From Escherichia coli (GTDB taxonomy: Bacteria; Pseudomonadota; Gammaproteobacteria; Enterobacterales; Enterobacteriaceae): 64,000 nucleotides of DNA. The stretch is taken from assembly GCF_048403405.1 (NCBI RefSeq), contig NZ_CP183129.1, one strand, 5' to 3'. The position numbers are program-made. Positions 12,601 to 15,600 of this stretch are shown piece by piece. The stretch's first letter is position 1. Each line of letters opens with the position of its first letter.

Positions 12601-15600
12601 ACTGACGGACAATGAGATCCGGTTACTGAACAGTTTAACCATTGAAGATCTGCATTATCTTTCTCAAAGTCCGGTCTCCATTATTACCTGCCAGATCCAC
12701 CGGGAGAATTTACGGTTATTACTGACCCGGGCAAAAGAAGTTCACCGTCAAAATCAGATGATTGAACGCTGTCTGAGACTGGGGGCATCCATCGATTTGC
12801 TGAATCAGTATTTTGGCATGACGTCACTGGAGGTGTCAGCCCGTCGGCGTTTGTCCGGGATCCGGGGAAATGCTGGCCGTTCACAGCGGCTGTCAGATGT
12901 GCAGCAAACGGAATTATGGTATCGCTGGAAAGAGGAGGGCATGCCGGAGCCGGATGATCCGGATTGTCTTCAGATCATGGTGTCCTGTGCCGAAAAAATG
13001 AATGTCTCTCTGACCACGGTATGGAATTCGGTTCAGGAATGGCACCGGGACGGCATACTGAATTCAGCTGACAGGGGGAAATATCATGCCGGATAACAGG
13101 AATATCAGTCATCATCAATCCGCCCGGATATTTCCGGAATGTGTCACGCCTGTTCCGGAGCATATTCAGCGGAAGGCAAACGGGTTATTGCTACGTTATT
13201 TTTCGGGAGAACGACTTTGTAAAAAAGTGAAATGCGGTGGAAAAAAGGGCGGTGTTTACCCGGTATTGAAAATTGATATTGGTGCATTCTGGCGTCTGCT
13301 CAGTATGGACCAGGGGCAAAGCTGGAAGCTGATGAGCCATGAACGTTATAACAAGATGATTAGCCGGTAAGGGCAGAATATTCAACATCATGATCCTCAG
13401 TATATTGAGACTGCCTCTTTACGGTGCGGTATTTTCACCGGAGGAGGCAGCTATAAGTGTATTCAGGCATGAAATTATTTTTGTGTGGGGCATAAGATGC
13501 AATTTCCTCCGGACAGTATTATTCAGTTTTCATTAGAAAAAATGCGGCAGCAACTGCATCACCGGCAACACAGCCAGCCCGGCACGGCACTGCGCAGTGG
13601 ATTGATTTACGCCGGCAATGTTCATGATGCAATCCCCCGGCAATTATTGCTGGAATCCCGACTTTCCCCGGTTGATAAACTGACCTGGATGATGATCCGC
13701 CTTCATGCTCAGCAAAATGAGGGGGCCGTATTTCCGACCTATGATGACTTACAACTCCAGTTAGCCACACCCCACAGCGATAAAGCCTCGCGGGAAACGG
13801 TCAGCAGGGCACTGTTAATGCTGAGGCTGACGGGCTGGCTCAGTTTATGCCATCGGGTCAGGGATAAACGGGGGCGTATCAGAGGAAATATCTATATGTT
13901 ACATGATGAGCCGGTGAATGCATTTGATGCAGAGACATTAGATCCACGCTGGATGGATGTACTGGAAAAAAGTTGTTATCACAAAAATAAGAGTGTGCGG
14001 TGCGTGGCCCGCGCTGCGCTGACTGCCCTGAAAACCGAGCCGTCAATGCGACATCAGCATACCAGAATGCAACTCATTGAGCAGCGGCTTGAAAGTCTTC
14101 AGACACCGGAAGCGCTGGCAGACAGGCAACGCCGGATACTCAATGGGCAGACGGCACAACTTCATCCGGGTAAACATAAAAAAAATCGAGCCCAGTGTAA
14201 AACACCGGATTTGAAAATCGAACTCAGGGAAAAAAATGATGAAAAAAAACCGGGTACGAAAATCGAACTGAGTACACAAACCCAGTCTGATTCAGGGGTA
14301 CGAAAATCGAACTGTTACGTACGTAATACTTTTACACAGAGTGTAAAAAATACGTACGTAGATCAGGGAGAGCAATATTTATCGGGTACTCAGGTGCAGG
14401 GGCTGCATCAGTGGATTGATGAGAATGATCGGCAGATGCTGGAAAAACAGTTACAGGCGTTGCCGGAAGAAGCCGCAATATCGATTGTGCAGCAACTGAC
14501 ACAGGGGGTGAGGACAGGAAGTGTACGTAATCCGGTGGGGTATGCCTTGCAGCTATTAAAGGCAGCCCGTGAAGGGCGATATCACTCCGTTTCCCCAGCA
14601 GAAACGGGGATGAAAAGTGCGTCTTTACAGAAAATGTCAGGTACTCCGGATGTATCACAGCACACGCAAACCAAACCGGAGAGAACGGAGAGAAGTAAGG
14701 CGTCTCAGGGGGGGATGGGTGCCCCTGATATTGCACGTCAGTACCTTCAGCGTTTTCGCCGTACGCTCATAGGGATATCCAATGAGCAATGAAGGCGTAT
14801 TCAATAAATCACCCGTGTTTCCACTGGAAACAGTGCTCAAAACTTAACCGGTGTTTCCACTGGAAACAGTGCTCAAAACTTAACCGGTGTTTCCACTGGA
14901 AACAGTGTTTAAAAATTGGGTTTTTCTTATCCGGGTAGGAAGGTCCGGAACGCGATATTTCGCTTTCCGTAACGAAATCTGCATCATCGAGAGTAAAGAA
15001 TTTAACAAGCTATGGAGCAGTCTGGTTAACGATATGGGCATAGAGATATTTTCGTACATATAATTTCACTCTGATATTTACTTTAAACTGATCTTATTGT
15101 TTTTTGCCCACTTTCTTAATCTTCCATTAGCGTTGGCGTAAGGCGAAGATGTGTTAAATGAGATCATTCTCCCCATCGTCCATTTTGTGTACCATAGTCT
15201 TCCATACAAAATATCATCGGTACGCTCATCAATAAGTTTCACAACTTCATTTTTTACAGCCTGAAGTTCAGCTACTAACAATTCATAACTTAACTCACTG
15301 TAATCTGAGTAAAATTTTTGAGCAAGAAGACTAAGTTGATTCCATTTATAGCCAGTTTCCGGAAAATCGACAGGCAGACCTTTAGCATCAAAAGTGATCC
15401 ACTTTACAACAAGAGCATTCCATCCAAGCAGATATGAAACAAGGTCATGAACACTTATCTTCGTTCCTTTGGCGTGTCCATCCATTGAGTTATCTGAAGT
15501 CATTTCTGGCGGGATTGCGTTGAGGTAACTAATTAATTTACTAAAACTTTTATCAATAGCTAAAAGCAGCTCAGCTTTTGTTTGTGGCACACTCATGAAG

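Follow-up and report, generated by a model that had tools for sequence, protein, structure and literature searches.

Iteron-like palindromes conserved as DNA inside an initiator-like gene of a PFGI-1/SPI-7-type conjugative island: a putative vegetative origin

Introduction

Islands of the PFGI-1 type spread genes for virulence, siderophores and resistance in Enterobacterales, Pseudomonas and Haemophilus, and the way in which they persist once excised is still debated. Members of the PFGI-1/SPI-7 group have been reported to replicate (PMC4489591), and current models favour relaxase-driven rolling-circle copying; in ICEclc, a distant relative, a gain in copy number after excision depends on the TraI relaxase and on oriT1 (PMC6561031). 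Yet the same islands encode a DnaB helicase, partition genes and an initiator-like gene. The window analyzed here, a stretch of 64,000 nucleotides from Escherichia coli (NZ_CP183129.1), includes such a gene, and a first-pass annotation had noticed inside it iteron-like direct repeats followed by a long inverted repeat, proposing that an origin (oriV or oriT) or an autoregulatory site could be embedded there. Are these repeats a DNA element or a by-product of the protein that they encode and, in the former case, what could they serve?

Results

The host gene and its protein

The gene belongs to the STY4528 family, with a whole-protein score of 364 bits against NF040582 (curated cut-off 130), and the family comprises 812 protein clusters at 50% identity. 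The island that carries it is of the PFGI-1/SPI-7 conjugative type. According to the annotation of an identical E. coli copy, the module reads parA, dnaB-PI, parB, DUF2857, ParE-like, STY4528, (clbS), PFL_4669 and topB; this annotation and NCBIfam matches together place DnaB, ParB, ParA, topoisomerase and SSB-type genes around the repeats. No relaxase gene is present in the annotated stretch around them. At distant loci the synteny is kept, in the order parA-dnaB-parB-DUF2857-X-PFL_4669-ssb-topB. The features concerned are the following.

about 8965-10317: dnaB of the island
10332..11981, + strand: ICE ParB-family gene (TIGR03764, 344 bits)
13497..14792, + strand: gene of the STY4528-family 'pathogenicity island replication protein', 431 aa (NCBIfam NF040582)
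14145..14387, + strand: A+T-rich segment coding for the predicted linker, aa 217-297 (pLDDT <50), which houses all in-gene repeats
14182..14195, unstranded: copy 0, decayed half-site AAAATCGAGCCCAG (AAAATCGAACTCAG in relatives), frame +1, read KKNR
14208..14227, unstranded: iteron 1, GATTTGAAAATCGAACTCAG, left arm degenerate, frame 0, read KIEL
14253..14272, unstranded: iteron 2, GGTACGAAAATCGAACTGAG, 45 bp past iteron 1, frame 0, read KIEL
14297..14313, unstranded: iteron 3, GGTACGAAAATCGAACT, 44 bp past iteron 2, frame +2, read RKSN, adjoining the palindrome
14315..14361, unstranded: compound A+T-rich palindrome of 47 bp, candidate unwinding/loading element
14801..14917, unstranded: second array of about three 36-bp tandem units just past the stop codon, each with the palindrome TGTTTCCA-C-TGGAAACA
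15840-16583: PFL_4669 homologue (NCBIfam match)

The N-terminal part of the protein, modelled from 89 sequences with a pLDDT of 91, is predicted to be a winged helix whose nearest folds are replication-initiation proteins. The full-length model (18 sequences) is poor, with a pLDDT of 55, and was used solely for its pattern of order and disorder. On this basis a winged-helix region (aa ~35-216) would be followed by a disordered linker (aa 217-297), then by a C-terminal three-helix bundle (aa 309-358) and, last, by a terminal helix. The repeat sites correspond to aa 229-273, within the predicted disordered segment.

Pfam returns HTH_36 alone for the STY4528-family protein of the window (E = 0.05-0.12), with a best E of about 1e-9 for other members of the family, and in 11 of 89 members the C-terminal region has a weak match to RP-C_C, the RepC C-terminal domain, at E <=0.1 (best 2.5e-5). 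With the protein of the window, no significant profile match was obtained for RepA_N (PF06970), Phage_rep_O or Rep_3, and searches of PDB sequences and of PHROG, phage O proteins included, gave no match. The likeness to RepA_N, Phage_rep_O and Rep_3 initiators is thus one of predicted fold and architecture only, not of sequence.

Repeats and palindrome in the window

The first-pass annotation had counted three copies of a repeat at 14208-14360, all inside the coding sequence. Their position and their spacing of 45 bp (14208 to 14253) and 44 bp (14253 to 14297) stand, and all in-gene repeats and the palindrome do lie within 13497-14792. The count has to be amended, as only the copies at 14253 and 14297 are exact 18-mers (GGTACGAAAATCGAACTG), and the copy at 14208, GATTTGAAAATCGAACTC, is mismatched at 4 of 18 positions and shares with them only the 12-nt core GAAAATCGAACT. 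The decayed half-site at 14182-14195 had been missed. The 18-mer is expected 0.04 times by chance in the window, and none of 100 shuffles contained at least two copies; the core is found three times in 64 kb, each time in the repeat region, for 0.35 expected. Single repeats are imperfect palindromes, of the form GTTCGA-AAA-TCGAAC in relatives, and in the window the left arms and copy 0 are degenerate. The GC content of the repeat-bearing stretch is 0.33-0.43 versus about 0.5-0.65 in the adjacent coding sequence.

The inverted repeat reported to follow the direct repeats proved real, and extends over 47 bp (14315-14361). In it, TTTTACAC-AGA-GTGTAAAA (14330-14348) stands between two TACGTACGTA boxes, each self-complementary, one at 14316-14325 and the other at 14351-14360. 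The folding energy of the palindrome as single-stranded DNA is -13.6 kcal/mol (z = -4.8); its centre is A+T-rich, and the GC content is 0.33 at 14300-14379. All 42 non-redundant relatives keep it, with the boxes spaced by 35 or 32 bp. By pair counting, 92% of cells are paired, with one compensatory T:A to C:G pair (14 sequences), and RNAalifold recovered the outer stem alone, without covariation. The palindrome is conserved, and the support from covariation is thin. Scans for promoters and terminators gave nothing above chance. No DnaA box lies near the repeats, and the four found in the window equal the chance expectation.

Conservation of the repeats as DNA

We compared 81 homologous loci with 38-100% protein identity, a site being defined as AGTTCG-N5-CGAACT with at least 10 of 12 positions. 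The linker segment (32 kb in total) contains 236 sites and the flanks (649 kb) nine, an enrichment of about 520-fold which places the periodic repeats noted at first well beyond chance. No further good site was found at promoters in the 649 kb of flanks; the nine flank matches, considered as further operators, were rejected, being poor palindromes in conserved coding sequence that probably arose by chance.

The same periodic repeats are thus present in homologous rep-like genes, and the 45/44-bp spacing is fixed. The offsets of the three sites from the palindrome are constant in the 42 non-redundant sequences. Spacings in relatives are 33, 42, 44, 45 or 54 bp and never 36, 39, 48 or 51 bp, which is consistent with sites lying on one face of the helix. 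Most Enterobacterales relatives have the core GAGTTCGGAATCCGAACTCAG, of which the window carries a TCGAAC variant. The arms co-vary between clades (GTTCGA..TCGAAC, GTTCGG..CCGAAC, GTCCGG..CCGGAC), and in some clades iteron 3 is reduced to its right half-site. In distant homologues, the same place is occupied by four copies of AGTTCC-N5-GGAACT, AGTTAAG-N3-CTTAACT or GTGCA-N-TGCAC, and a long palindrome with an A+T-rich centre comes after the last repeat. The sequence of this palindrome can be wholly different from one clade to another, for example (AGT)n...(ACT)n, and its place after the last repeat is retained.

The copies in the window are spread over three reading frames, and the sites in relatives fall in frame 0 (184) or frame 2 (52). 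Their codons are nearly fixed (Ser TCG 97%, Val GTA 100%, Arg CGT 100%), whereas in the rest of the gene the top codon accounts for 30-60%. Codon position 3 holds 1.11 bits of information in the linker segment versus 0.55 and 0.35 in the folded domains (p = 6e-9), and in this segment alone it is conserved as well as positions 1 and 2. In the Erwinia clade, the change from CCGAAC to CCGGAC runs throughout the aligned copies, with few deviating cells, and the protein therefore undergoes E-to-G and N-to-D replacements. Repeated SELS-like peptides are found in homologues, and the poly-Ser...poly-Thr peptides of the distant ones find an explanation in their (AGT)n/(ACT)n palindromes. The nucleotide repeats are retained in each clade sampled, and the peptide around them, for which disorder is predicted, shows little conservation; this is the opposite of a conserved protein that loses its nucleotide repeats, the outcome that would have pointed to repeats incidental to coding. 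The so-called KIEL peptide repeat is then a by-product of the DNA, because the frames differ, the codons are fixed and the peptide is poorly conserved. The repeats are selected as DNA and not as peptide, in support of the earlier suggestion of iteron-type cis-acting DNA embedded in the gene.

An E100D replacement in the predicted recognition helix co-occurs with CCGGAC, a suggestive observation from a single clade (Erwinia). A residue-to-base co-variation of this kind is contradicted by one homologue (P0139), in which the TCGAACTCAG sites are kept and the helix sequence is different, and it was set aside.

A second array downstream of the gene

The number of units in the 36-bp array varies between about 2 and 12, E. 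coli M9 having 11.9. About a third of the 42 relatives have an equivalent array, as does one homologue that is 35% identical. This array and the in-gene repeats probably belong to one cis-acting region. The array is a candidate centromere-like site, and a better parS-type candidate than the in-gene sites.

Comparison with known systems

The palindrome of the in-gene repeats had already been given, in a paper of 2009, as the putative oriV of PFGI-1, where CTGAGTTCGGAATCCGAACTCAGT is described in four copies (PMC2647930). According to the accounts of the putative oriV of PFGI-1, pKLC102, ICEHin1056 and SPI-7 (PMC2647930, PMC2258188), it occupies the same place, upstream of the PFL_4669 homologue in the dnaB-parB-topB module. 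The window shares with the oriV described for PFGI-1 the palindrome family (as a TCGAAC variant) and an A+T-rich stretch, with three sites and one half-site for about four palindromic repeats, as well as flanking DnaB, ParB, ParA, topoisomerase and SSB-type genes. The two-part layout is also shared: a second direct-repeat array with an inverted repeat in each unit lies between the PFL_4668 and PFL_4669 homologues, at 14801-14917 in the window, and matches the 'second half' of the published putative oriV (PMC2647930). Relative to the PFGI-1 region as described, the left arms in the window are degenerate, the units of the second array are 36 bp long and hold another palindrome, and PFL_4669 is preceded by an inserted clbS-family gene. 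The oriV section of the PFGI-1 description (PMC2647930) does not state that the palindromes are located inside the initiator-like gene.

A parallel can be drawn with the RepA_N theta replicons of Gram-positive bacteria (pSK41, pAD1), whose initiator combines a winged-helix N-terminus, a dispensable linker and a C-terminal recruitment domain. In pSK41, the N-terminal domain of Rep binds four Rep boxes in the centre of rep; Rep can do without the linker peptide that the origin encodes, and primase is recruited by its C-terminal domain (PMC5703833). As in pSK41, four repeats, there initiator-binding, lie in linker-coding DNA, between the regions for an N-terminal DNA-binding domain and a C-terminal domain, both predicted here, and they are conserved as DNA apart from the peptide. 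The differences are that the protein of the window has no detectable RepA_N sequence membership, that the hosts are Proteobacterial integrative elements with their own DnaB-type helicase, and that the sites, themselves palindromic, precede a large palindrome.

The origin of phage lambda also lies inside its initiator gene, O: four repeats with internal dyad symmetry, then an A+T-rich stretch and a palindrome, are found in the DNA of the inter-domain linker, and related elements have repeats specific to their type. The island region resembles it in its repeats with dyad symmetry, in the A+T-rich palindrome that follows them, in its place in the linker of a putative initiator and in its clade-specific repeats. 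However, lambda repeats are adjacent whereas those of the island are ~44-45 bp apart, and the lambda P protein loads the host DnaB whereas the island encodes its own DnaB homologue. Finally, repABC plasmids have their oriV inside repC, in its A+T-rich central region (PMC3155836), a location within the initiator gene similar to the one proposed here; on the other hand, no iterons can be recognised in repC, its protein acts in cis only, and the similarity of the island family to RepC is marginal.

Discussion

The comparative data largely refute the view that the repeats are incidental to coding, as a KIEL/SELS peptide repeat in a low-complexity linker, or reflect an mRNA structure with no function at the DNA level, and we hold it to be highly improbable. 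SELS-like peptides do recur in homologues and the region, as RNA, folds better than shuffled sequences (z = -3.7), but the peptide-repeat reading is rejected because one DNA word yields KKNR, KIEL and RKSN in three different frames, and synonymous positions are fixed. Moreover, an identical nucleotide change extends across copies regardless of its effect on the amino acids, and the (AGT)n/(ACT)n palindromes account for the poly-Ser...poly-Thr peptides. An RNA element was discarded too: an Rfam search of the region gave no match, and the hairpin is not required, since only the right half-site of iteron 3 is left in some clades. We consider it quite unlikely that the region is an oriT or another conjugative-processing site, in which the repeats would bind accessory proteins and the palindrome would form a hairpin by the relaxase nick. 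Such regions typically combine direct and inverted repeats, as observed here, and the palindrome folds well as single-stranded DNA; besides, genes of the module are required for ICEHin1056 transfer (PMC3739013) and replication of excised ICEclc needs oriT1 and the relaxase (PMC6561031). Against this stand the absence of a relaxase gene from the annotated neighbourhood, the initiator-like winged-helix fold predicted for the host protein, which bears no relaxase or relaxosome-accessory signature, and the replacement of the palindrome sequence between clades at a constant position, with no evident conserved nick-site core. The literature on the family, in its accounts of the region, names it oriV (PMC2647930, PMC2258188).

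One would also wonder whether the in-gene palindromes could be a centromere or an operator, bound by a ParB-like, DUF2857 or PFL_4669/AcaB-like protein in order to partition the island, to silence the operon or to let it regulate itself, for instance by an in-gene roadblock. Palindromes of 17 bp, such as these sites, are typically bound by dimeric HTH proteins of the ParB or KorB kind, and the sites are located in a parA-parB module. Furthermore, disruption of the parB and DUF2857 homologues of ICEHin1056 decreases transfer up to 100,000-fold (PMC3739013), and these proteins must therefore act on something essential. We nevertheless find this possibility doubtful. The in-gene sites always adjoin an A+T-rich palindrome and always fall in the linker of a protein with a predicted initiator-like fold, as in pSK41, and the 649 kb of flanks offer no further good site at promoters. 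The 36-bp array, with its variable copy number, is more centromere-like than the fixed in-gene sites, and compares with sopC, the centromere of the F plasmid.

Among an oriV, an oriT and an autoregulatory site, an oriV is, by anatomy and analogy, the best supported. From the sequences, the protein models and the parallels drawn above, we think it fairly probable that the repeats constitute the vegetative origin of the conjugative island and that this origin thus lies within the gene for the initiator itself. Some points count against an oriV: the ICEclc copies point to relaxase-driven replication (PMC6561031); the ParB-like or DUF2857 protein of the module could bind the palindromes instead; and the window has degenerate left arms and a degenerate copy 0, with no DnaA boxes nearby.

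If the repeats are an oriV, we infer the identity of the binding protein, DNA melting, helicase loading and origin activity as follows. After excision, dimers of the STY4528-family protein would bind, through their N-terminal winged-helix domain, three palindromic sites and one half-site with the core TCGAACT. At distances of roughly 33, 45 and 44 bp, these sites would be in phase with the helix, and they are part of the DNA for the disordered linker of the same protein. The resulting nucleoprotein complex would destabilise the adjoining A+T-rich palindrome (14315-14361), to which the C-terminal domain would bring components of the replisome, plausibly the DnaB-type helicase of the island. The downstream 36-bp array would probably serve another protein of the module, such as the ParB-like partition protein.

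In the present analysis, the long-predicted 'oriV' repeats are linked to a putative winged-helix initiator that may hold the origin in its own linker. The corresponding mini-replicon hypothesis is compact and testable: a single gene of ~1.3 kb, with or without the island dnaB. A broader proposal is that the whole PFGI-1/SPI-7/ICEHin1056/ICEclc superfamily possesses a self-contained, relaxase-independent theta replicon, with a linker-embedded origin, clade-specific iterons that co-evolve with the initiator, the island DnaB acting at initiation and a DNA constraint that dictates the peptide; to this we would give an even chance. If true, it would give Gram-negative bacteria an equivalent of the RepA_N and lambda-O design, and the view that oriT and the relaxase drive island replication would have to be revised. 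Since the iterons differ between clades, they could also explain the incompatibility of related islands. The locus is finally a clear case of a cis-acting DNA element that dictates the sequence of a disordered protein segment.

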